Below are positions 1 through 59,268 of a DNA stretch of 59,268 bases, in pieces. Below the pieces are notes generated by a model. It did no database searches, was not told the DNA's origin, and saw only the letters and a list, made by a program, of their open reading frames with translations. Positions within the stretch are counted from its first letter, which is position 1. Each line of letters begins with the position of its first letter. The DNA comes from a virus. The DNA lies in IMG/VR virus record IMGVR_UViG_3300033407_000013; one strand, given 5' to 3'. Both the position numbers and the translations under genes were made by a program.

Positions 1-9
1 TCCTCGTCG

Positions 10-863
<854 letters not shown>

Positions 864-3020: not shown

Positions 3021-3899
3021 CTACCCCGGTTCGGCCAGCTTGGGGTTCCCATTCCCGTTTCCGCTGGCCCCGGGCTCCCGGCGGCCCTCATCGGCCCGCT
3101 GGGCGGCCTCGACCCACTCCGCAGGGCCGATCTCAGCCGGAGCCACCAGGACCCCAGCCCGCAGGTCGACCTCGACGTGCTGCGTCTCCCGCCAGCCCAT
3201 CCGGGCCTTCGCCCAGAAAATCGCCGCCGAGGGTACGCGCCGCGCGCCGTTGCGGCCAGTCGCCATGGCGAACAGCGACTCGGCCACCTTCCCGTTCGCC
3301 TGCGACGGCCCCATGCCGAGCTCGAGCTCGAAGTGCTTGCGGAGCGTCGACTCGTCGATCGGCGCGTTAGTCCTCGGATTCACGACCTGCAACGCGATCT
3401 CGTCGTGCCGCAGGCCGAACCCGGCGAGGGTGAGCACGCGGACCCGGTCCTCGGACGTCGGCGTGAAAGCGGGGAACGGAGCCGATTCGCGCGGCTGGCG
3501 CCTCCAATCCGGCACGCTCGGCACGGCTGCCTGCGTGCCGGATTGATTTCCCGCACGCGTGCCCTCCCTAACCGCCGCGGCCTTCGCGAGCTGGGCCTTC
3601 ACGGCTTCCTTCGCTGCGCGCTTGGCGCGGCGCCGCTCGCGCTCACGCTCGCACTTCTCGAGGCGTTTCGCCTCGCGCTGCTCGGGCGTGAGCCGGGGTC
3701 GTCCTCGCTTTTTCGGCACGGCCTGAGCATCGCCCTTCGGGTGGTAGAGCGCAACCCACGTGCAGCTCGAGGAAGCGTCAGGCACGCAGGTGCTCGAACC
3801 TGTCCGCCGGCCCCGCCGTGGTCGATCGAGGAGCGCACGGCTGCCGGACGAACCGAAGGCCGAACCCTCTCCCACGCGCGTCCCGTGCCCGTCGCTCAA
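3021..3899 (-). CDS. HTH DNA-binding protein, possible small terminase subunit (start uncertain)
   Basis: AT-hook KKRGRPR, an HTH-like segment VLTLAGFGLRHDEIALQV...STLRKHF, and AAIFWAKARMGWRE. I recall the last motif from small-terminase-like phage proteins. The 3899 start is TTG and the first ~60 codons look weakly coding. Confidence 0.4.
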   Translation of the reverse strand: MSDGHGTRVGEGSAFGSSGSRALLDRPRRGRRTGSSTCVPDASSSCTWVALYHPKGDAQAVPKKRGRPRLTPEQREAKRLEKCERERERRRAKRAAKEAVKAQLAKAAAVREGTRAGNQSGTQAAVPSVPDWRRQPRESAPFPAFTPTSEDRVRVLTLAGFGLRHDEIALQVVNPRTNAPIDESTLRKHFELELGMGPSQANGKVAESLFAMATGRNGARRVPSAAIFWAKARMGWRETQHVEVDLRAGVLVAPAEIGPAEWVEAAQRADEGRREPGASGNGNGNPKLAEPG

Positions 3900-4006
3900 G
3901 GTGCGGGCTTCACCTCACCAGCGCCCCGGCCCGACCTCGCGTGGCGGCCGGCCGATGGTCGGGGTGCAAGCTGGGTCGGATCCACCCGCGGTAGGACATC
4001 CTAACT

Positions 4007-4020
4007 GTTCCACGTGGAAC
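4007..4020. promoter_or_regulatory. Perfect 14-bp palindrome GTTCCACGTGGAAC in a 305-bp non-coding gap
   Basis: Read directly. It lies in the relatively AT-richer stretch CTAACTGTTCCACGTGGAACACG upstream of the TerS-like gene. Confidence 0.3.
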
Positions 4021-4151
4021 ACGCCAGGAGGCGGCCTGGGAAGCCTGTAGAGCGATTCGTACGCTGGGGCGTGTGGGATGGGGGGGTGCGGCGGCCGGGA
4101 CGCCGGAGGGACGGAAAGAGGCGACCCCCAGGGGTCATCCCCAGGAGGCCG

Positions 4152-4198
4152 CCACAGAAAGCCCGCAGGGGCGCGCAGGGGCGCGCCGGCTGGCGCGC
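4152..4198 (-). terminator. Stem-loop(s) after the small-gene cassette
   Basis: GCGCGCC-GGCT-GGCGCGC (4181-4198) lies immediately after the stop at 4205. On the minus strand a smaller GCCC/GGGC hairpin followed by TTTCTG comes next. Confidence 0.35.
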
Positions 4199-4204
4199 GT
4201 GGCG

Positions 4205-4471
4205 TCAGCCGTAGAACGAGCGCCCCGGCCCGCGGGCGTGCTGGGAGCGGCCGTAGGTGTCGCGGGGCTCGACCACGCGGGTACGCAGGATCGAGACCAG
4301 GCTCTCGCCGGCGGCACGGCGCCGTCGGAGGAACGCCAAGAGGGCCGCGGCGCGCCGGTCGCGCTCGAGCTGGGCCGGATCGGCCGGATCGGATGGCAGA
4401 GGCACGGGGAGCTCGAGGCCCAGCGCCTCGGCGCGGGCGGCGCGCCACTCCTCGAAGCTCGGGCGGGTCAT
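4205..4471 (-). CDS. Small hypothetical protein (88 aa), fifth gene of the coupled cassette
   Basis: Starts MTRPSFEEWRAARAEALGLELP. Its start forms an ATGA overlap with the upstream stop at 4468-4471. Confidence 0.55.
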   Translation of the reverse strand: MTRPSFEEWRAARAEALGLELPVPLPSDPADPAQLERDRRAAALLAFLRRRRAAGESLVSILRTRVVEPRDTYGRSQHARGPGRSFYG

Positions 4472-4848
4472 CTCTGGTCCTTTTGGGCCTCGCGGCCTTC
4501 GGCGGCCGCGACGAGCACGCGCGCCGCCGCGCGCGCCACGTCGGCCAGCGCGCGCTCGAGCTCGGAGAGCTGCGCCGGGAGCACCCCGGCGCGCTGGCGC
4601 TCGCGACGGAGCACGTACTCCGGGGCCACGTCCCCGGGGTCCCAGCCCGTGGCCGCGTGGAGCACGACGGCGACCGCGCGCTCCGCGGGCGCGGACCCTG
4701 CGAGGATCCACTCGCGGGCCTGGCGGACCAGTGCCCACACCGGGTCCCAGGCATCGGCCCGGTACGGCCCCGTCGGGCCCAAGACGACCCGGCCCCCCGC
4801 GAGGACGCGGGTGAGCTGCGGCGGAGGAACAACGCGGCGCGCGCTCAC
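4468..4848 (-). CDS. Small hypothetical protein (126 aa), fourth gene of the cassette
   Basis: GTG start (VSARR...) in a GTGA overlap, preceded by GGAGG within the conserved 20-bp junction 4841-4860. Confidence 0.55.
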   Translation of the reverse strand: MSARRVVPPPQLTRVLAGGRVVLGPTGPYRADAWDPVWALVRQAREWILAGSAPAERAVAVVLHAATGWDPGDVAPEYVLRRERQRAGVLPAQLSELERALADVARAAARVLVAAAEGREAQKDQR

Positions 4849-5087
4849 GGCCGCACCTCCACGATCTCCGCGATGGCGTCCTGCCCGTCGTCTCCGACGG
4901 ACTCCTCCTCCGACTGCCAGATCAGCGCCCGCTCGAGGTCCGGACCGCCAGCGGGGTCGGGGCGGTACGGCTGGAGGCCGTGATTGTAGCTGCCGGGCCA
5001 CAGGCGCTCGGCGGCGGCGGCGCACTCCACGTACATGCCGCTGGCGCGCTCGTCGCCCGTGGGGCCGCGCAGGATCCAGGCGCTCAC
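4845..5087 (-). CDS. Small hypothetical protein (80 aa), third gene of the cassette
   Basis: GTG start (VSAWILRGPTGDE...) in a GTGA overlap. The conserved junction is at 5080-5099. Confidence 0.55.
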   Translation of the reverse strand: MSAWILRGPTGDERASGMYVECAAAAERLWPGSYNHGLQPYRPDPAGGPDLERALIWQSEEESVGDDGQDAIAEIVEVRP

Positions 5088-5272
5088 GACCGCACCTCCG
5101 CGTCCTCGCCCTGGCTGTCCTCCCACTCCGCGACCAGCTCGGCCAGCTCGGCCGCCGAGATGACGTCGAGGTCGTGGCTGTGGCACACGTCCTCGTCGGG
5201 CATGGCCTGGCACTCGTCGCACTCGTCGATGATCCAGGACAGGATCTCGCGCTGCCGCTCTGTGGCGCTCAC
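5084..5272 (-). CDS. Small, highly acidic Cys-containing protein (62 aa), second gene of the cassette
   Basis: VSATERQREILSWIIDECDECQAMPDEDVCHSHDLDV...EWEDSQGEDAEVRS. GTGA overlap. The conserved junction is at 5265-5284. Confidence 0.55.
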   Translation of the reverse strand: MSATERQREILSWIIDECDECQAMPDEDVCHSHDLDVISAAELAELVAEWEDSQGEDAEVRS

Positions 5273-5460
5273 GACTGCACCTCCCGCTCGATGGTCGGCT
5301 CGCCGCCGACGACCTGCGCACACTCACGCGCGCTCGCCTCGGCGGCGGCCTCCGTGGCGTGGGGGCCACTCCAGCGGCCGAGCCCCAGCAGGGACCCGCC
5401 GTGGTAGACGGTCCATGTCGTCTCGGGCGCGCTCAGTGTCGTTCCAGTCGTCTCGGTCAT
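5269..5460 (-). CDS. Small hypothetical protein (63 aa), first gene of the cassette
   Basis: ATG at 5460 is preceded by GGAGA. The product starts MTETTGTTLSAPETTWTVYHGG. Confidence 0.5.
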   Translation of the reverse strand: MTETTGTTLSAPETTWTVYHGGSLLGLGRWSGPHATEAAAEASARECAQVVGGEPTIEREVQS

Positions 5461-5680
5461 CTCTCGTCTCCGTTTCGCGCGCCCTGTCCGCCGGGCGCCT
5501 CGCGTCGCGGGGCTCGTCCCCGCTCAAGAGTGTGATCGGCCAACCCTACCCCGGAACTTGAAGCCTCGGCGCCGCATTCCCAAGGTGGGACACAGGTCGT
5601 AGGGCTGTCCACAGCGCGGGCGGCTGCGCGCCATGAGGCGCGGGAGGAAGGGCCGTGAGGTGAAAGAGACGGGGCCGCCG

Positions 5681-5744
5681 GGTTGCGGTACCCGGCGGCC
5701 CCTGCGCGCAGGAAACTCTCGCCTCGCACGAGAGGATCCCACGG
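5681..5744 (-). terminator. Tandem stem-loops in a 341-bp non-coding gap
   Basis: A perfect 12-bp stem GGGGCCGCCGGG/CCCGGCGGCCCC (5681-5692 / 5701-5712) has an 8-nt loop and is followed on the minus strand by GTCTCTTTC. A second hairpin CTCTCG/CGAGAG (5726-5744) is followed by TTTCC. Confidence 0.5.
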
Positions 5745-5801
5745 GCGGCGGAAGACCGGAAGGAGGGAGTCCGGATTTCTTTCCACCCCCCCATCCGTGG
5801 T

Positions 5802-6071
5802 TCAAGGATCGAGGGCGTCGAGGCACGCCCGGCAGAGCCGGAAACGGTGGAAGCTCGCGCGCTCCCGGCCGAAGAAGGTCGCGCCGTTGCTCAGGCGCTC
5901 CGGATCGCACAACAGCCGCCAGGTCTGCCACGGCGCGATGAAGCGGCCGCCGCTCGATCCGCGCGCCACATGGTAGACCGCCGACCCGCCGCAGCAACCA
6001 AGCGGCTCGCTCGACACCGACAGCGAGGACACCCCCTCGATATCGATCGTCTTCCGGTCCCGGCCCGGCAT
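5802..6071 (-). CDS. Small Cys-rich hypothetical protein (89 aa)
   Basis: MPGRDRKTIDIEG...PLGCCGGSAVY...LCDPERL...FRLCRACLDALDP. The start overlaps the upstream stop (TGATG). Confidence 0.5.
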   Translation of the reverse strand: MPGRDRKTIDIEGVSSLSVSSEPLGCCGGSAVYHVARGSSGGRFIAPWQTWRLLCDPERLSNGATFFGRERASFHRFRLCRACLDALDP

Positions 6072-6805
6072 CAGCGAGCCTCCCCCGCGTAGCGAGCGGG
6101 CCGGAGCTCGTCGCCCTCGACCTGTGGCAGCGCCACGTCGAGCGGCCAACCCCAGCCGACAGCGACAGCGCGCGCCTCGCCGGCCGACAGCGGAACGTTG
6201 ATCCACTGCTCGGCTCCGTCGTCGTAGAGCATCCACGCCTCCTCGTCGACGTCGGTCCGCCGGAGCAGCCGCATGGAATGCACGCCACAGATCGCGCGCG
6301 CGGAGCGATGCGCGATCTCTGGCGCGCACTCATAGGAACACCAACGCCACGGGTCCGGGCTGTTCATCGGGCCGGCACGGTGCGTCGCCTTGCAGGTCTC
6401 GCAGATTCTTCTCACGATTCGCCCCTCTCGTCCTCTTTGATCGCCGAGCGGCGCGTTCGGCCGCCCGGCGCTGCGCGCCACAGCCTCGACGAGAACGAGC
6501 TCGTCTCGCTGAACCTCGTCCTCGAGCGCCTCCATGCGGGCGACGCCGTGCGACACCGTCGAATGATGGTGCCCTCCGACGCCCGCGCCAATCTCCTCGA
6601 GCGTGAGACAAGTCGCCTTGCGAGCGACGTACATCGCAGCGTGCCTCGCTCGGACAATCTTCGCCGAGCGACCGGCGCCGGTAACTGCCTTCACCTCCAC
6701 GCCGAAGACGCGCGCAGCAGCGGCCACAATCGCCTCGATGGTCGGTGGCCTGCCTGCCTCGAGCTCGCGTTCGCGGTCGCGCAGGTAGGCGTTCTTTCCA
6801 ATCAT
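6071..6805 (-). CDS. DnaA domain IV (DnaA C-terminal HTH)-like DNA-binding protein with a C-terminal Cys4 zinc-ribbon-like extension
   Basis: SAKIVRARHAAMYVARKATCLTLEEIGAGVGGHHHSTVSHGVARME matches the Bac_DnaA_C signature (IvxaRqiAMYLxrxlTxxSlxeIGxxFGgrdHsTVxha). Then CETCK...CSYEC follows. Confidence 0.7.
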   Translation of the reverse strand: MIGKNAYLRDRERELEAGRPPTIEAIVAAAARVFGVEVKAVTGAGRSAKIVRARHAAMYVARKATCLTLEEIGAGVGGHHHSTVSHGVARMEALEDEVQRDELVLVEAVARSAGRPNAPLGDQRGREGRIVRRICETCKATHRAGPMNSPDPWRWCSYECAPEIAHRSARAICGVHSMRLLRRTDVDEEAWMLYDDGAEQWINVPLSAGEARAVAVGWGWPLDVALPQVEGDELRPARYAGEAR

Positions 6806-12723: not shown

Positions 12724-13173
12724 TCAGTTGCTCTCGGCCTGCGTGATCGAGCCCGCGGTGATCTTGACTGCGGCGCCCTGCTGGATGGCCAGGCTGTTGA
12801 TGTTCATCTCGCCACCCGAAGTCAGGACGGTGTCGAACTGGAAGTGCTCGACGCCGGTCGAGTCCTCGAGGCGGGCGAACAGCGTCGGCGTCGCGGTCGC
12901 GGTGTTGTCCGCCGACGAATCCTCCGGCTCCGGCGTGACGTCGAGGTCGATGCGCGCGCCGGGGCCAGCGTCGACGAAACCCGCGAACGAGGGATCGTTC
13001 AACGGGATGTCGGCGAGGAGGATCTGCGTCGTGATCGCCACCGAGAGGTCGGCGGGAATCCCGGCGCCGTTCTCGTCGTAGATTTTGCAGTGGCCGGCGG
13101 CCGGTCCGCCGTCGATCAGCGCCGTGATCTGATCCGCTTGCGCCCCCGCGAGCGCCAGGCTGATCTTCGCCAT
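12724..13173 (-). CDS. Hypothetical protein (149 aa), resembles small proteins found next to phage fibre genes
   Basis: MAKISLALAGAQADQITALIDGGPAAGHCKIYDENG... The start uses the same TGACCAATGGCGA junction as 10367. Confidence 0.5.
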   Translation of the reverse strand: MAKISLALAGAQADQITALIDGGPAAGHCKIYDENGAGIPADLSVAITTQILLADIPLNDPSFAGFVDAGPGARIDLDVTPEPEDSSADNTATATPTLFARLEDSTGVEHFQFDTVLTSGGEMNINSLAIQQGAAVKITAGSITQAESN

Positions 13174-14419: not shown

Positions 14420-15715
14420 TCAACTTCCCGGATCGGCGAGGGTCGCGCGTCCGTCCTCGATCCACACGCCCGCGCCGCTAGGGTTCGAGTCCACGACCTC
14501 GAGCCACAGCTGGAATCCACTGGACTCGGCAATCTCGGCGAGCTGCACCTTGCTCTCGTCGTCGAGCAGCGAGCCCTCCCGCGCGAACAGCACCCTGATC
14601 TTCGGCGAGCCCGCCATCGCCACAGCAGCGGCGAGCTTCAAACGCTCGGCCTGCGACGCCTGAGTGAAGGGAATCGTGCCCACCCGCAACAGGCGCTCGT
14701 CCGGATCGTAGGTCACGCCCTTCATCGGGAAGGGCGTCTCGGCGAGCAGCTTGCGGAGCTCGGCGCGCGTCTCCTCGAGCGCGACGACGGCCGCCTCGTG
14801 CTCCGACTGTGCGGTGTCCCGCTCGGCCGTCGTCGACGCGAGCAGCTCGTGCTTGCCGGCGTGCTTCGCCGCGAGCTCGTGCGCACGGATCGCCTCGCGG
14901 ATCGGCTCGGCATCGACGGGCTCGCCGGCGTCGACGACGGCTTTCGCGGTGTCCTTCCAGGCGGCGCGAACCTTCTCCTGCTCGGCCTTCAAGAGCTCAA
15001 GCTCCTTCGCCAACTCCTCGCCCCTCGTAGCGAGCGCGGCCATCTTCCGCCGACCTTCGCCGATCGCGGCGTTGGTCCGCTCGGCCTCCTGCAGCCTGGC
15101 GGCGCACTCCTCGAGCGTGCCCTCGGTAGGCGGCGAGGGGAGACCACCGAGCTCGGCCTCGAGAGCGGCGACGGCCTTCGCGAGCCGATCGGCCTCACGG
15201 CCGAGATCCCGCCGGCGGTCGTACTGCGCCTGCGCCTGCTCTTCGAGCTGCTCGACCTGGTCGCCGAGACCGATCGCGGCCAGTGCCCCCTTCACCTGCT
15301 CGTCGGCCTTCATGCCGAGGAAGGCGACGGGATCTGCGAACTCGCCCACGAGGGCGTCGAGGATCGCCTGCGGGCTGCGCAGCGACGACCCGTCGGCTGC
15401 CTGCACGGAGAGCGACGTCTCGGCCTTGTCGTCGCTCCCGCGCTTCCAGTGGCGCCGGACGACGATGGCACCCAGGTCGAGCACGACGTCGGCGCCGGCC
15501 TGTCCCTCGGCGATCGGGAGCGCCTGCGCGCCCTTCCGGCCGAGGAGCGCGGCGAGCATCGACTCGATCAGGCTCGACTTCCCGGCCGCGTTCTTCCCGC
15601 GGACAGGGATCAGGCCCGTGGGCGACGGCTGCAGGTCGCAGGCGACCAACTTCTTGAAGCTGTCGACGGTGAGGCGGACGACCGTCATCGGGCCGTCGGG
15701 GAGCTGCTCGGACAT
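14420..15715 (-). CDS. SMC/Rad50/RecF-like ATPase with a central coiled coil
   Basis: Walker A VRGKNAAGKSSLIES, a long coiled-coil middle, and a C-terminal LFAREGSLLDDESKVQL that looks like a Walker B / D-loop region. AGGAGG lies 5 nt upstream of the ATG. Confidence 0.7.
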   Translation of the reverse strand: MSEQLPDGPMTVVRLTVDSFKKLVACDLQPSPTGLIPVRGKNAAGKSSLIESMLAALLGRKGAQALPIAEGQAGADVVLDLGAIVVRRHWKRGSDDKAETSLSVQAADGSSLRSPQAILDALVGEFADPVAFLGMKADEQVKGALAAIGLGDQVEQLEEQAQAQYDRRRDLGREADRLAKAVAALEAELGGLPSPPTEGTLEECAARLQEAERTNAAIGEGRRKMAALATRGEELAKELELLKAEQEKVRAAWKDTAKAVVDAGEPVDAEPIREAIRAHELAAKHAGKHELLASTTAERDTAQSEHEAAVVALEETRAELRKLLAETPFPMKGVTYDPDERLLRVGTIPFTQASQAERLKLAAAVAMAGSPKIRVLFAREGSLLDDESKVQLAEIAESSGFQLWLEVVDSNPSGAGVWIEDGRATLADPGS

Positions 15716-26219: not shown

Positions 26220-26662
26220 AGGTCGGTCCCCTGCAGCGACACGATCGTCGCGGTGAAGTTGATGGCCCGCTCGGTGAGCTCGTCGGCGACGGTCGGGCCG
26301 ATCATCCCTTCGCCGAGCTTGGTCTGGATTCCTCGGTCGGCCCACGGGCGCATGACCGTCGACCACGGAACTCCGCGCAGCGCAGCCGAATCCTTCGCCG
26401 CGAGCGCTGCGCCGAGTGCATCGCCTTGGGCGCGCAGGCTGTTGGCGGCTCCGGGCAGGAGGTCACCCTCGCTCTCGCCGTCCACGATGCCGTGCAGGTA
26501 GTCGCCGCGCACGCCGGGCCATGCGAGCTCGGCCGCGGGAAACTGCGCGGCCTGCTTGACGCCGTCGACCTTCTCCTGTGATCGGCACGCGACGTTGCTG
26601 CCGGCCATTCCGAGAAGCCCGACCACCAGGCCGAGCGAGAGTAGGGACTGGAGGAGTCTCAT
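26216..26662 (-). CDS. Exported protein (signal peptide, possible lipobox)
   Basis: MRLLQSLLSLGLVVGLLGMAGSNVAC... The start is preceded by CGAAGAAAGCAACCG, a 1-mismatch copy of the conserved initiation motif. Confidence 0.55.
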   Translation of the reverse strand: MRLLQSLLSLGLVVGLLGMAGSNVACRSQEKVDGVKQAAQFPAAELAWPGVRGDYLHGIVDGESEGDLLPGAANSLRAQGDALGAALAAKDSAALRGVPWSTVMRPWADRGIQTKLGEGMIGPTVADELTERAINFTATIVSLQGTDL

Positions 26663-26904: not shown

Positions 26905-27128
26905 CGCCTCTCCATACCGAACACCACGGCGGCAAACAAGCCCACACCGGCCGAGAGCTCGACCAGAGCCCACCGCCAGTGCACCAGCAGCAGAAGCGCC
27001 CAGAAACCAACCGCGAAGGCCAGGACGGCGGCAGCCACCAGGACCCCCCACAGGGTCACGCGCTGGACTACGCCAGGCGTCGGCGTCGGCCGACGTCCGA
27101 ATCCCAGGTCAGTGCCGTTGAGTCGCAT
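26877..27128 (-). CDS. Holin/antiholin-like small membrane protein
   Basis: 83 aa with hydrophobic spans LWGVLVAAAVLAFAVGFWALLLLV and LSAGVGLFAAVVFG and a basic tail. The start overlaps the GGDEF gene stop (TGATG). Confidence 0.4.
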   Translation of the reverse strand: MRLNGTDLGFGRRPTPTPGVVQRVTLWGVLVAAAVLAFAVGFWALLLLVHWRWALVELSAGVGLFAAVVFGMERRCRSRSCRS

Positions 27129-27682
27129 CAGAGCTTTGCCAGGGTTGCGGCTCTCTCGGTCGGAACACCGAGCTCGATCTTACGCGCGTGCTTCCGCTCG
27201 GTCACTCCTCGATCGGCCGCGCGGAAGCGGCGGACGAAGTCGCATCCAGGACTCCACACCCCCACGCCGCCCGAGATGAACACGGGCGCCGAGGGACCCA
27301 GGTAGCGCAGGCCGACGGCCATCTCGATTCGATCTCGAACGGCTCGCGCGTCTCCAAGTGTAGCGCCGGGCAGGAGCACGACGAACTCGTCGCCCCCGAT
27401 GCGGTAGACCGAGTCGGCCTCCTCGCGCACGAGACCCGAGACGACGACCAGGAGCTCATCGGCCCCCTGCATTCCGAGCACGACGTTCGCCGCCTTGAGG
27501 TTGGCGACATCGAGCACAACGAAGCCGAACCGACGGCGGCGGCGGCGCAGGCGCCCGGTGACTTCCAGCCAGCGCAGGCGGTTCCAGCATCCGGTCAGCA
27601 CGTCGGTCTGCGCCTCGCGTTGGAGCCTGCGGATCGCGAAGAGGGCACCCCACAGGGTCCACAGCAGGAAGGCTTCGAACAT
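27128..27682 (-). CDS. Membrane-anchored GGDEF-domain diguanylate cyclase
   Basis: N-terminal TMD FEAFLLWTLWGALFAI. Then DVLTGCWNR, VVLDVANLKAANVVLGMQGADELL, YRIGGDEFVVLLPG, FISGGVGV and AADRGVTERKHARK align position by position with the PF00990 / PleD catalytic residues. Confidence 0.85.
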   Translation of the reverse strand: MFEAFLLWTLWGALFAIRRLQREAQTDVLTGCWNRLRWLEVTGRLRRRRRRFGFVVLDVANLKAANVVLGMQGADELLVVVSGLVREEADSVYRIGGDEFVVLLPGATLGDARAVRDRIEMAVGLRYLGPSAPVFISGGVGVWSPGCDFVRRFRAADRGVTERKHARKIELGVPTERAATLAKL

Positions 27683-49307: not shown

Positions 49308-50195
49308 TCAGCTCCCCATCGTCGGGCGGTTCGGACTCATGCCCGCGATCGGCCGAGGATCCGGACGCTTCAAGCCGCGATCGGTGCGCCGCCTCATGGC
49401 GAGATCGAGCCGCGACGCGCCGCGCAACTCCTTCGCCACGTCCTCGGGGCTCACGCCGGCCTCGATGAAGCGGCGGGTGCGGGTGATGCGAGCCTCGCGG
49501 TTCCGCTGCTGGCCTTGCAGGAACGCGCGGATGACGTCCGCCGGACGCTCCGGAGGGGCAACCAGCTGCAGCGCGCGTCCGCACAGCTGCGCCTTCGCCG
49601 AGAGGGCGCGCAACTCCTCCTCGATCCGCTGCTTCTCGCGGATGAGCCCCTGCGAGCGGATCTCGATCTCCTCGACGGCGCGTTGCAGCAGCTGGGGGTC
49701 ACGCAGGAGCTTCGCCATCGGCACGTCGAGCGCCGAGAGCGCAGCGCCCGGAGGCGCTCCGAGAGCCCCGGAGACAGCTCCGGACGCTTGCCCTTGAGGG
49801 GCGGGAGGAACGGACGGCTGCGCGCCAGAAGGGACCTCGGGGCGCGGCTTGGAGGGCACGGCCGGGGATGCCGGAGCAGGCGGGCTTGAGGCGTCCGCCA
49901 GGATGGTCGGCTCGTCGTGCTCGAGCTTCCCCCCGGCCGTGGTCTCACCCGCCGCTGCGGCGATCGCTGAGTCCCGCAGCCGCTGATACTCCGTGATCCA
50001 GGTCGGAGCGGTCTCGCGGGTGAACGTCGGCGCCTGGTCGATGATGTCCTGGCGCTGCACGGGCGGATCGTTCCCTTCGTCCAGTGCGGCGTTCACGACA
50101 TCGACGCGCACCTGTCCGTCGGTCGTCCAGTGGTCATCGTTCTTGGGATCGGCCGTCACGAGGGCGGCCGCCAGGGCGGCGGTGAGCTGCGGCAT
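49308..50195 (-). CDS. Hypothetical head-module protein: small N-domain, Pro-rich linker, coiled coil (295 aa)
   Basis: MPQLTAALAAALVTADPKNDDHWTTDGQVRVDVV... The start is preceded by the exact 18-mer CGAAGGAAGCAACCGATG. The 1031-aa ORF-track version is an out-of-frame extension. Confidence 0.6.
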   Translation of the reverse strand: MPQLTAALAAALVTADPKNDDHWTTDGQVRVDVVNAALDEGNDPPVQRQDIIDQAPTFTRETAPTWITEYQRLRDSAIAAAAGETTAGGKLEHDEPTILADASSPPAPASPAVPSKPRPEVPSGAQPSVPPAPQGQASGAVSGALGAPPGAALSALDVPMAKLLRDPQLLQRAVEEIEIRSQGLIREKQRIEEELRALSAKAQLCGRALQLVAPPERPADVIRAFLQGQQRNREARITRTRRFIEAGVSPEDVAKELRGASRLDLAMRRRTDRGLKRPDPRPIAGMSPNRPTMGS

Positions 50196-57916: not shown

Positions 57917-58147
57917 TCAGTCGTGCTCGAATCCTAGTGCGCTCGCGACGATCTGCGTCCACAGCGCAAGATTGACGCAGTTCCACGTCGGACGGTCCTC
58001 GATATCGAGCAGCTCGCGGATCGTGTGCCAGTCGTCGCCCGCCTGGCCGCCGGTCTCGTAGCCGCAGCGCAGGCACGGTCGCTGCGAATGCTTCCGCAGC
58101 CGCGCGCCGCACGCCGGACAGTAGGCCGCGTCAAGCCGGTACTTCAC
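57917..58147 (-). CDS. Zinc-ribbon protein (76 aa)
   Basis: CPACGARLRKHSQRPCLRCG gives CxxC...CxxC. The GTG start is in a GTGA overlap with the upstream stop. Confidence 0.5.
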   Translation of the reverse strand: MKYRLDAAYCPACGARLRKHSQRPCLRCGYETGGQAGDDWHTIRELLDIEDRPTWNCVNLALWTQIVASALGFEHD

Positions 58148-59154
58148 AGGTCGCCATTGGTCATGCCCACCGCGTTGCCGCGGACCGTCACGAGGTACGT
58201 ATCCCAGTCAATCCGACTGTCGTACGTGTAGTGGCGCACCTCGACCGTCGTGGGGTCCAGGTCGTCGATCTCGGTCGCGAGGATCTCGATCAAGCGCTGC
58301 CGCGTCGGACAAGGGCGGGCCGTCGTCATCGACTCCTGCAAGTTGCCGCGCTGCCATCGGAACAGTAGGTCGCCCTCGGCGTCCTCGGGCGGCTCATCGA
58401 CCGCGACTTTCGCCATCGAGTGCCGCGCACTCGGGCGGTGCAGGTCGGGCCGGTCCTCGCCGATCCGGCCGTCCGGCTGCAACTCGATCGTCGCCGCCTG
58501 CTTGCGCCTGATGCCCTGCGCGAGCAGATCCCACCGGCGGCGCACGAAGTCGGCCACCTCTTCGTCGGTGCCCTCGGCGTTGGTCCCGTAGTTGGTGATC
58601 ACGTCGCCGCCGTGCGTCGTGATCGTGAAGAACCGCACGGTGCCGAGCGCGGTCTTCACGAACTCGTCGTGGCCGGCCTGCGCCGGCGCAACCGGTGGCT
58701 CGGGTTCGTCAACCGCCTTCGGGTCCTTGCCACCCCAGTTCGGACGTGTACCGCCGAAGCCCCCGGGCACGACGTGCTCCTCGCTGCACGGCGCGGCGCA
58801 CGCATCCTCGAGCGCATTGAGCAAGCCGTCTACGTTCTCGACACCGCCAGCGCGCAGCCCAGGGGTGCCATCGCCAGGCACGGGCAACGTGATCTCCTTC
58901 GGAGCACCCATCTGTTCCGTCCACTCATTCACAGCGGCCTGCGGGCCACGGCGGTCTTCGTCAGTCGTGTGCTCGTCGATGCGCACACGCTTGACCTTCT
59001 CGGCCTTGGCCGCCGCGAACAACTCATCGCTCAGGAAGCCCAGGATCGCGAGCATCTTCCCCTCGCCCACGCTCTCGGCCGAAACCGACACCTCCTCGAG
59101 AGGCACCCACGCCTTCCCATTCCACACGCCGACCTTCCAAGTCCTCGTCGTCAC
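58144..59154 (-). CDS. Hypothetical protein (336 aa), starts inside the terminal repeat
   Basis: GTG at 59154 overlaps (GTGA) the stop of CDS 10..867 when the contig is circularised. I prefer it to the ORF-track start at 59217. Confidence 0.55.
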   Translation of the reverse strand: MTTRTWKVGVWNGKAWVPLEEVSVSAESVGEGKMLAILGFLSDELFAAAKAEKVKRVRIDEHTTDEDRRGPQAAVNEWTEQMGAPKEITLPVPGDGTPGLRAGGVENVDGLLNALEDACAAPCSEEHVVPGGFGGTRPNWGGKDPKAVDEPEPPVAPAQAGHDEFVKTALGTVRFFTITTHGGDVITNYGTNAEGTDEEVADFVRRRWDLLAQGIRRKQAATIELQPDGRIGEDRPDLHRPSARHSMAKVAVDEPPEDAEGDLLFRWQRGNLQESMTTARPCPTRQRLIEILATEIDDLDPTTVEVRHYTYDSRIDWDTYLVTVRGNAVGMTNGDL

Positions 59155-59268
59155 GCGACCTTCTCTGCGGGCAGCCTCTCCAACTCCTCCAATACGATCG
59201 CGCGGATGCGCTCCCACGCATGGCTTTTGGCGCCGTCGGCGGCGGCGGAGGCGGCGGAGGCGGCGGCG
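59142..59268. repeat. Terminal direct repeat, right copy (identical to 1..127)
   Basis: Read directly, with no mismatch seen. Confidence 0.95.

Follow-up and report, generated by a model that had tools for sequence, protein, structure and literature searches.

The DNA analysed here, referred to as the window, is IMG/VR record IMGVR_UViG_3300033407_000013, which at 59,268 bp is a complete ~59-kb genome of an uncultured, high-GC, siphovirus-like phage with nearly all of its genes on the minus strand. Between positions 5460 and 4205 of that strand, five small open reading frames (ORFs), g1 to g5, are chained by short stop/start overlaps, and the first three junctions of this cassette carry copies of one 20-nt sequence, hereafter called the module. 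The first gene, g1 (5269..5460, 63 aa), starts with ATG and encodes an acidic product of pI 4.7 without a family; it is followed by g2 (5084..5272, 62 aa, GTG start, pI 4.05, net charge -16) and g3 (4845..5087, 80 aa, GTG start), whose product is acidic as well (pI 4.25) and for which no family or relative was found. The remaining two products are basic, namely g4 (4468..4848, 126 aa, GTG start, pI 10.6), which is predicted to be helical, and g5 (4205..4471, 88 aa, ATG start, pI 11.2), which has no family, and the cassette is thereby split by charge into g1-g3 and g4-g5. The module copies lie at 5265..5284 between the g1 stop and the g2 start (j1, GGAGGTGCAGTCGTGAGCGC, GTGA overlap at 5269-5272), at 5080..5099 between the g2 stop and the g3 start (j2, GGAGGTGCGGTCGTGAGCGC, GTGA overlap at 5084-5087), and at 4841..4860 between the g3 stop and the g4 start (j3, GGAGGTGCGGCCGTGAGCGC, GTGA overlap at 4845-4848), all on the minus strand. 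Their consensus, GGAGGTGC(A/G)G(T/C)CGTGAGCGC, joins four unrelated small ORFs. The original prediction, made by a model that saw only the letters and their ORFs, had placed three copies of a 20-mer at these positions, and the degenerate pattern GGAGGTGCRGYCGTGAGCGC indeed matches the window three times and no more, each time on the minus strand. Three module matches were reached in 0/100 dinucleotide-preserving shuffles, even with 3 mismatches allowed.

Each module consists of GGAGG, a 7-nt spacer and GTG, with a GTGA overlap of the upstream stop and the downstream start; it can also be seen as GGAGGTG, 5 nt of spacer and a GUG start that overlaps the UGA stop. Over its 7 nt, GGAGGTG is complementary to the conserved 3' tail of 16S rRNA (...CACCUCC...). 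Of the 20 module bases, 7 belong to the Shine-Dalgarno sequence (SD) and 4 to the overlap. The products of the upstream genes terminate with EVQS, EVRS and EVRP and those of the downstream genes start with VSA, and in all these details the anatomy described beforehand for each copy was found to be correct. The same holds for the ATGA by which g5 was said to join the array: the g4 stop and the g5 start (j4, 4466..4479, minus strand) share the ATGA at 4468-4471 behind a weak SD, AAAGGA. The j4 context GACCAGAGATGACC resembles the start context of g1, GACGAGAGATGACC, at 5455-5468, and the two ATG starts of the cassette have GAC[G/C]AGAGATGACC in common. The predicted hairpins of the module (-8 to -11 kcal/mol) are no stabler than those of shuffles (z -0.07 to -0.6). 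A mini-hairpin that would enforce coupling (GGUGC:GCGCC, with the start codon in the loop) was predicted at j1 and j2 and was rejected, as it is not better than in shuffles. Programmed frameshifting, considered for the SD upstream of the stop, was rejected too, for want of a slippery sequence and because every downstream frame is provided with a start of its own.

The similarity of the three junctions is exceptional within the window. In a comparison of the initiation regions from -12 to +8 at the starts of 68 independently called genes (2,278 pairs), the three cassette junction pairs come out highest, at 19, 19 and 18 of 20, the mode being ~8. The SDs of the module are the longest properly placed anti-SD complements among the 68 genes, with the exception of one AGAAAGGA. 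GGAGGTG-N5-GTGA occurs in the window at the three cassette junctions only. Overlaps of the RTGA type are found at 20/67 junctions of the window and the module at only three, the other 17 RTGA junctions and the highly expressed structural genes of the phage being without it. The conserved block around the modules ends sharply at 20-21 nt, and neighbouring modules are 19/20 identical as against 18/20 for the outer pair.

Look-alike groups of initiation regions occur elsewhere in the window too, where unlinked regions resemble one another at 16-18 of 20. On the minus strand, CGAAGGAAGCAACCGATG stands before 50195 and 44707, and variants of it are found at 26662 and 53058; the family, CGAAGGAAGCAAC(C/T)G..ATG, has sharp bounds and its genes are unrelated, and a 77-nt intergenic gap lies before each of the genes starting at 50195 and 44707. 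Further groups share GAGGACTGACCAATGGCG at 13173, 10367 and 39298, and TAGGAGGTCCGAATG at 15715 and 22395.

All five ORFs of the cassette look coding, because the GC content at their third codon positions (GC3) is 0.88-0.97 and the independent gene caller of the source collection yields the identical five ORFs with the same boundaries; the GC content at second codon positions has its minimum in the minus-strand frames. There is no paralogy among g1-g5, which range from 62 to 126 aa, the best E value between any two being 0.011 without composition correction. None of the five products had a match in Pfam, PHROG, NCBIfam, PADLOC or PDB, as expected from the earlier remark that none has a recognisable family, the cassette had no match in Rfam, and deposited phages contained no DNA or protein match to it. 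The strongly acidic 62-aa product with a CxxC...C.H motif that had been singled out at 5084..5272 is g2, and its motif, CxxC-x8-C-x2-H, is conserved in the sole homologue found, P0008 (51% identity). P0008 and g2 are the two known members of a tiny acidic CCCH family, and judging from the motif g2 probably binds zinc. The remaining database matches of g2 are long acidic repeat proteins and look compositional, and no relatives of the g2 family were found in bacterial genomes. Structure prediction followed by a Foldseek search, as proposed for the five products, led to models of g2 and g4 and to a fold search for g2 without any fold match: the g2 model from a two-sequence alignment has a predicted local distance difference test score (pLDDT) of 66 and found nothing in PDB (best E 8), while the single-sequence model of g4, an ORFan among 5.8 billion protein clusters, has a pLDDT of 52. 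With no family matches, low-confidence models and an empty fold search, the suggestion that these are early anti-defence or host-takeover genes is unsupported, nor is it excluded.

The searches with g1, g2, g3 and g5 returned only two 100%-identical contigs with the same gene order, and there are no variants of the cassette in public data; g3 searched in metagenome contigs gave no relatives. The g2 homologue P0008, on contig L169, sits at a different junction, cgggagggtctATGA, among neighbours unrelated to g1 and g3, so that gene and module do not travel as one. Contig L169 has a repeated initiation module of its own, ATGGAGGGACGACAGATGACC, which is identical at the starts 8546 and 9015, 470 bp apart, in a different small-gene array (and in contig L170). 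The gene for the DnaA_C-domain protein upstream of the cassette, used as an anchor, retrieved nothing from viral contigs and only 33-41% relatives from metagenomes, which are without cassette or module.

The exact 20-mer is present in 32 IMG/VR contigs (54-74% GC), nearly always at GTGA junctions of unrelated proteins. A control scan that left the spacer free (GGAGGTGNNNNNGTGAGCGC) gave at least 120 matches, and the spacers of the 120 matches listed are diverse, AAGCC being the commonest (12/120) and CRGYC, the spacer type of the window, accounting for 3/120. Among the matches listed, the 32 exact ones correspond to ~2.5% of the common skeleton. The exact 20-mer thus makes up only a minor part of a widespread junction skeleton and is no mobile sequence, and a shared mobile element as the source of the 32 exact matches was rejected on account of these spacer counts and of the unrelated flanking proteins. 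In a clustering survey of 114 viral loci picked irrespective of the spacer, 34/114 have at least two GGAGGTG-N5-RTGA sites; 84/85 same-locus pairs are on one strand, with a median spacing of 533 bp, and at least 4 of the 5 spacer bases are common to 67% of the same-locus pairs versus 8.7% of the pairs between loci. With one vote per locus (45 loci), spacer identity per position is 0.54-0.67 within and 0.30-0.51 between loci, and the flanks are near background. Both 90-nt flanks are at background identity in 102/113 same-genome module pairs (23 loci), so that recent gene duplication is not the general cause of the repetition. Multi-copy examples are L025 and L020 with three consecutive copies each, L029 with eight copies in 2.2 kb, and a group with the spacer AAGCC (L138, L151, L161 and L132). 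The comparator arrays had no match in deposited phages, and their proteins mostly belong to unknown PHROGs.

Some of these loci bear on the proposal that such boundary sequences could act as recombination linkers for small accessory genes, since the same module stands between non-homologous genes in the groups L016/L026, L029/L015/L032 and L151/L138. L029 and L015 have in common a 328-nt block with one mismatch, which begins with base 1 of one module and ends with the final base of the following module; the sequences on either side of it are unrelated, and in L032 the upstream gene of L029 is joined via the same 20-mer to a different downstream gene. L016 and L026 have only a 44-nt island in common around the module, with further short islands at gene ends and starts and unrelated interiors. 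L151 and L138 share the flanking genes and carry different ORFs between identical modules; the proposed check for different ORFs between the copies is thus positive in other viral contigs, whereas the lineage of the window itself offers only the two identical contigs. We also noted that in L016, L026 and L023 nucleotide identity is 95-100% over the first and last ~10 codons of neighbouring small genes and over the junction, whereas the interiors of these genes are unrelated and of different length (MNAHNEQHD... with ...DAEV[RQ]P; VSARI... with ...QANSHGAGVS; also MADLMQQARE...). L029 (reverse complement, -700..+1500 around the module) and L032 contain 5-6 paralogues of an uncharacterised ~100-aa family (MTNDQINAAIAQACGW..NDLNAMHEAE..ARQRAEAFLR..GKWEEVQP), which has no PHROG match, with unrelated ORFs interspersed, and all genes of these two arrays are joined by GGAGGTGCA[G/A]CC[G/A]TGA.

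The reading of the 20-mer as a stereotyped translational-coupling junction, working by termination-reinitiation (TeRe), is well founded, because its anatomy is that of overlapping stop/start pairs with a preceding SD, which were coupled experimentally in 13/14 tested cases, with the SD usually mattering (PMC6728339). Of the original wording, 'translationally coupled', the chain of five co-directional ORFs with 4-nt overlaps and a strong SD at ideal spacing at three of them stands as described, and coupling itself we infer from this anatomy. A ribosome ending the upstream ORF would stop at UGA, be held there by a 7-nt SD:anti-SD duplex (GGAGGUG with CACCUCC) ending 5 nt upstream of the start, and restart at the GUG that overlaps the stop. 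The products of g1-g4, plus g5 via its ATGA, would in this way be made in a fixed chain off one transcript. New or replacement ORFs could then reuse an existing junction, most simply via recombination in the short shared sequence, and a newcomer ORF would automatically acquire SD, start and overlapping stop. We tentatively favour, at somewhat less than an even chance, that the three junctions are copies propagated while ORFs joined or were exchanged at an existing junction; this is the likeliest origin because the junctions are near-identical while the joined ORFs are unrelated, and recombination as the cause would be deduced from that pattern. Also in favour of this explanation are the recurrence of such clusters in other phages, the exchange at modules there (L029/L015, L016/L026 and L151/L138), the accessory setting of the cassette and the recombination genes of the phage.

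Several points weigh against such an origin. Similarity without adjacency is possible, since unlinked initiation regions of the same genome (CGAAGGAAGCAACCGATG at 50195 and 44707) form look-alike families. No diverged relative carrying the cassette was found in searches with g3, with the flanking genes and with the individual genes. The comparator loci were ascertained by module presence and some are mutually related, which inflates the pair-weighted statistics given above. At 20 bases the module is short for homologous recombination. Breakpoints at modules were more frequent than at loosely defined RTGA sites (10/63 vs 18/768, odds ratio (OR) 7.9), and than at random positions, and the excess was smaller against SD-bearing junctions (10/64 vs 12/174, OR 2.5, p 0.046); against SD-bearing, coding-like RTGA junctions it disappeared (4/40 vs 8/88 and 3/36 vs 6/72, OR ~1), in a small sample of 22-64 module junctions that was itself ascertained on the module. 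Breakpoint enrichment was hence abandoned, as the initial OR of 7.9 fell to ~1 with proper control junctions. The sharp breakpoints may reflect merely selection for intact genes; the data fit the general rule that the mosaic joints of phages lie at gene boundaries, and they are no showing that the module attracts recombination. In favour of the proposed recombination linker is the exchange bounded by modules in other phages (L029/L015); against it, breakpoints are no commoner at modules than at other genuine overlapping junctions, which leaves the linker idea plausible but unproven. In other phages the module sometimes marks sites of small-gene swapping, and its driving of the swapping is unproven.

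Comparison with known systems shows what is ordinary in the module and what is not. Huber et al. (2019, PMC6728339) described TeRe coupling of genes that lie in the same direction, overlap by 4 nt (RTGA) and have an SD within the 3' end of the upstream gene, features that the cassette shares: the stop/start overlap is present at all four junctions and an SD at functional spacing at three, with only AAAGGA at g4/g5. The expected outcome of such coupling is tight, roughly stoichiometric co-translation (PMC6728339). While ordinary TeRe pairs, the other 17 of this genome included, each have a sequence of their own, three consecutive junctions of the window are near-identical over 20 nt, including bases without a role in SD, start or stop. 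The start-associated sequences (SAS) and extended SAS (ESAS) of Cluster K mycobacteriophages, present in 11-19 copies, overlap the ribosome-binding site and are of unknown function (Pope et al. 2011, PMC3203893). Like the module, SAS are short asymmetric repeats overlapping the ribosome-binding site before unrelated non-structural genes in one orientation, they sometimes include the upstream stop, and some of their conserved bases cannot pair with 16S rRNA; the module thus agrees with them in position, orientation and non-structural location. SAS, however, mostly precede ATG, whereas the start of the module is a GTG fused to the stop, it has 3 copies, and an extended inverted-repeat component is lacking. 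The promoter-early stem-loops (PeSLs) of T4-type phages are intergenic elements of ~100 bp that combine a strong sigma-70 promoter with a stem-loop terminator and so make their cassettes transcriptionally autonomous (Arbiol et al. 2010, PMC2839356; PMC4122927). Recombination between PeSL copies inserts, deletes and swaps ORFans, and mini-circles have been shown (PMC2839356; PMC4122927). PeSLs and the module are both repeated elements that end in SD and start and flank ORFans in hyperplastic regions, and the comparator cassette bounded exactly by two module copies is a further likeness; the module, in contrast, has 20 nt, lies inside coding sequence and is without promoter or significant hairpin, so that a plug-in would be translational and not transcriptional. 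It also resembles the linkers of the modular theory, which, in what the cited accounts of lambdoid phages relate (PMC2327257, PMC3974807), are short conserved boundary sequences between non-homologous genes, as seen in L016/L026 and L029/L015. In these same accounts linkers are classically conserved between related genomes, whereas the module is repeated within one genome at successive junctions. The stoperators of L5 and other Cluster A mycobacteriophages, as far as they are portrayed in the cited source (PMC3203893), are 13-14-bp asymmetric repeats that lie close to the ends and starts of genes and share one orientation with respect to transcription. They differ in being repressor-binding DNA sites spread genome-wide according to the same portrayal (PMC3203893), whereas the module has three copies in one operon and a fixed register to the start codon. 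The module would accordingly act as an ordinary TeRe junction that resembles SAS and PeSLs or linkers, yet it appears to be without the defining features of SAS, PeSLs and stoperators.

The junctions could also have converged, each independently reaching the same optimum of SD, spacing, GUG/UGA and Ser-Ala at codons 2-3 for the same coupling function, with no copying. Extreme GC3 codon bias leaves few synonymous choices to such sequences, much of the module is fixed by SD (7/20) and overlap (4/20), the skeleton GGAGGTG-N5-GTGAGCGC is very common with at least 120 matches, the exact 20-mer recurs beside unrelated genes, and the unlinked initiation regions alike at 16-18 of 20 belong to this same genome. 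A universal optimum would nevertheless predict something other than spacers that are diverse between genomes (CRGYC in 3/120 among the matches listed) and shared within them, and it is at odds with the 17 RTGA junctions and the highly expressed structural genes that do not use the module. Given the skeleton, the sharing of positions 8, 10 and 12 with only transitions at 9 and 11 in three independent junctions has p ~1e-3, a post hoc estimate from the positional frequencies of the spacer scan. We regard convergence as rather unlikely. A tandem origin, in which the bodies of one ancestral small gene diverged beyond recognition and the constrained junction was retained, has a precedent in L029 and L032, whose arrays have 5-6 clear paralogues; duplication contributes there, because many of the genes are paralogous and the conserved C-terminus of the family (...GKWEEVQP) includes the module. 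In the window the closer similarity of neighbouring modules (19/20) than of the outer pair (18/20) would agree with it, and so would the 47% identity of j2 and j3 over the 90 nt that precede them, which exceeds the 99th percentile for pairs between loci, although both stretches encode acidic tails and the identity is accounted for by acidic composition and 74% GC. Tandem paralogues as such were ruled out by the lack of similarity among g1-g5 (best E 0.011, lengths 62-126 aa), and the neighbours of the g2 homologue, unrelated to g1 and g3, as well as the background flanks in 102/113 module pairs of other loci, make duplication relics distinctly improbable for the window.

It is still less probable, and in our view very unlikely, that the module is the site of a trans-acting factor, a phage or host protein or RNA that would regulate translation in the manner of SAS or transcription and elongation in the manner of stoperators. 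Three copies in one operon stand against 11-19 SAS and ~30 stoperators per genome, no candidate regulator was identified, and hairpins no stabler than shuffles together with the missing Rfam match do not favour it either. The consensus sequences of both systems are absent beyond chance: the 13-bp SAS consensus GGGATAGGAGCCC has two matches in the window at 2 mismatches, neither of them in the cassette, versus 1.28 expected, and GGTGGMTGTCAAG, which we take from the L5 literature to be the stoperator consensus, does not occur in the window beyond chance. What such a factor would explain is the genome-specific spacer pattern, by co-evolution of factor and site, the single orientation of all copies, and the conservation of positions 8-12 and 17-20, which are unable to pair with 16S rRNA, an argument made in the same way for SAS (PMC3203893). 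Copies propagated at an existing junction thus remain the origin that we favour for j1 to j3.

The cassette as a whole is a lineage-specific accessory operon within a variable region, because it is bounded by gaps and hairpins, its genes rank high in GC content (1, 2, 4, 7 and 22 among the 68 window genes), and the nearest metagenomic relatives, L035 and L036, with 60-71% aa identity, keep the gene order between ParB and DUF5131 and consist of unrelated DNA beyond. The hairpin-bearing non-coding gaps that had been noticed around the array are real: a terminator-like hairpin with a 13-bp stem, of which 12 are G-C pairs, and a T-rich tail lies at 5671..5702 on the minus strand, in the 341-nt gap upstream of g1, and a weaker one at 4162..4179, just after the g5 stop (read on the minus strand, 5702-5671 and 4179-4162). 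The first of these would isolate the cassette from the DnaA_C and g0 genes. The downstream gap extends over 3786-4204 by the independent gene call or 3900-4204 by the longest ORF and thus has at least 305 nt. A scan of 3700-6200 for the sigma-70 consensus found no promoter-like site.

Other observations concern these gaps and the adjoining genes. The sequence GGATGGGGGGGTG occurs exactly twice in the window, at 4076-4088 (plus strand) and 5784-5796 (minus strand), as a perfect 13-nt inverted pair in the gaps that bracket the cassette; ~0.05 matches are expected window-wide, the similarity stops at 13 nt, and the sequence is absent from every other fetched locus. The pair is not significant alone, since ~0.5-0.7 perfect 13-nt inverted pairs are estimated by chance in 2.5 kb of 74% GC. 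A perfect 14-nt palindrome, GTTCCACGTGGAAC, lies in the downstream gap at 4007-4020, just upstream of a -10-like TAGGAT and of the next gene, which starts at 3785 or 3899; the palindrome resembles an operator, and its sole other near-match, with 2 mismatches, is at 57980-57993. Just upstream of the terminator of the cassette, g0 (5802-6071, minus strand) is an 89-aa Cys-rich ORF with 5 Cys that ends in ...FRLCRACLDALDP and has no family match, and its ATG shares one base with the stop codon of the DnaA_C gene (TGATG, gap -1).

The window equals the European Nucleotide Archive contig ERZ27256991:k141_4721225 (59,282 bp), and a second, independent assembly from SRR10376053 contains a 10-kb piece that is 100% identical to it. 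The two ends of the source contig overlap by 127 bp, positions 14722-14848 of L033 mapping to window 1-127 and to the 59142-59268 region, which would fit a complete genome, either circular or terminally redundant, after assembly with k=141. Its genes encode terminase, portal, tape measure and tail proteins, a primase, a RecD-like helicase, ParB_N, DUF932, DUF5131 and DnaA_C-domain proteins, and a 184-aa protein (27128-27682, minus strand) has a GGDEF (diguanylate cyclase) domain according to a precomputed Pfam match. The phage also encodes an AAA_24 (Sak4-type) protein and a PDDEXK nuclease, and phage recombinases of this kind are able to use homology that is short or diverged (PMC2327257, PMC5499656). 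With the terminases of siphoviruses of Proteobacteria that have genomes of ~58-62 kb (Roseobacter RDJL3, Pseudomonas PaMx74/Ab18 and Xanthomonas Mallos among them), the terminase of the window shares 53-56% identity, and the host is probably a proteobacterium, not Mycobacterium. Relatives of the gene at 3021-3785 (minus strand), downstream of the cassette, occur at 38-43% identity in genomes of Methylosinus and Methylocystis and in a metagenome-assembled genome of Bryobacteraceae. These are probably prophage regions, and the Methylocystis and Methylosinus relatives give a weak hint of an alphaproteobacterial host.

How phages gain and shuffle small ORFan genes is a question of long standing, with random illegitimate recombination plus selection on one side and exchange targeted to short conserved linkers on the other. 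Biochemically the junction is ordinary, while its recurrent genome-specific clustering between unrelated ORFs is a testable handle on phage mosaicism. The window and the comparator loci together provide a searchable sequence class of clustered, near-identical SD/stop/start junctions with unrelated ORFs, genome-specific spacers and at least one exactly bounded cassette, and with this class the linker hypothesis can be put to a direct test in high-GC phages. Should the module be merely an optimised coupling signal, it would still be a compact natural part for translational gene chaining in high-GC hosts. We consider it unlikely, yet worth stating, that PeSLs or integron attachment sites have in the module a counterpart at the level of translation, a ~20-nt adaptor of many high-GC phages that would target short-homology recombination to the junctions of ORFan arrays and at the same time chain the translation of promoterless ORFs between its copies. 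If this were true, lineage-specific spacers would delimit exchange communities, and the linker version of the modular theory would be revived for accessory-gene arrays.

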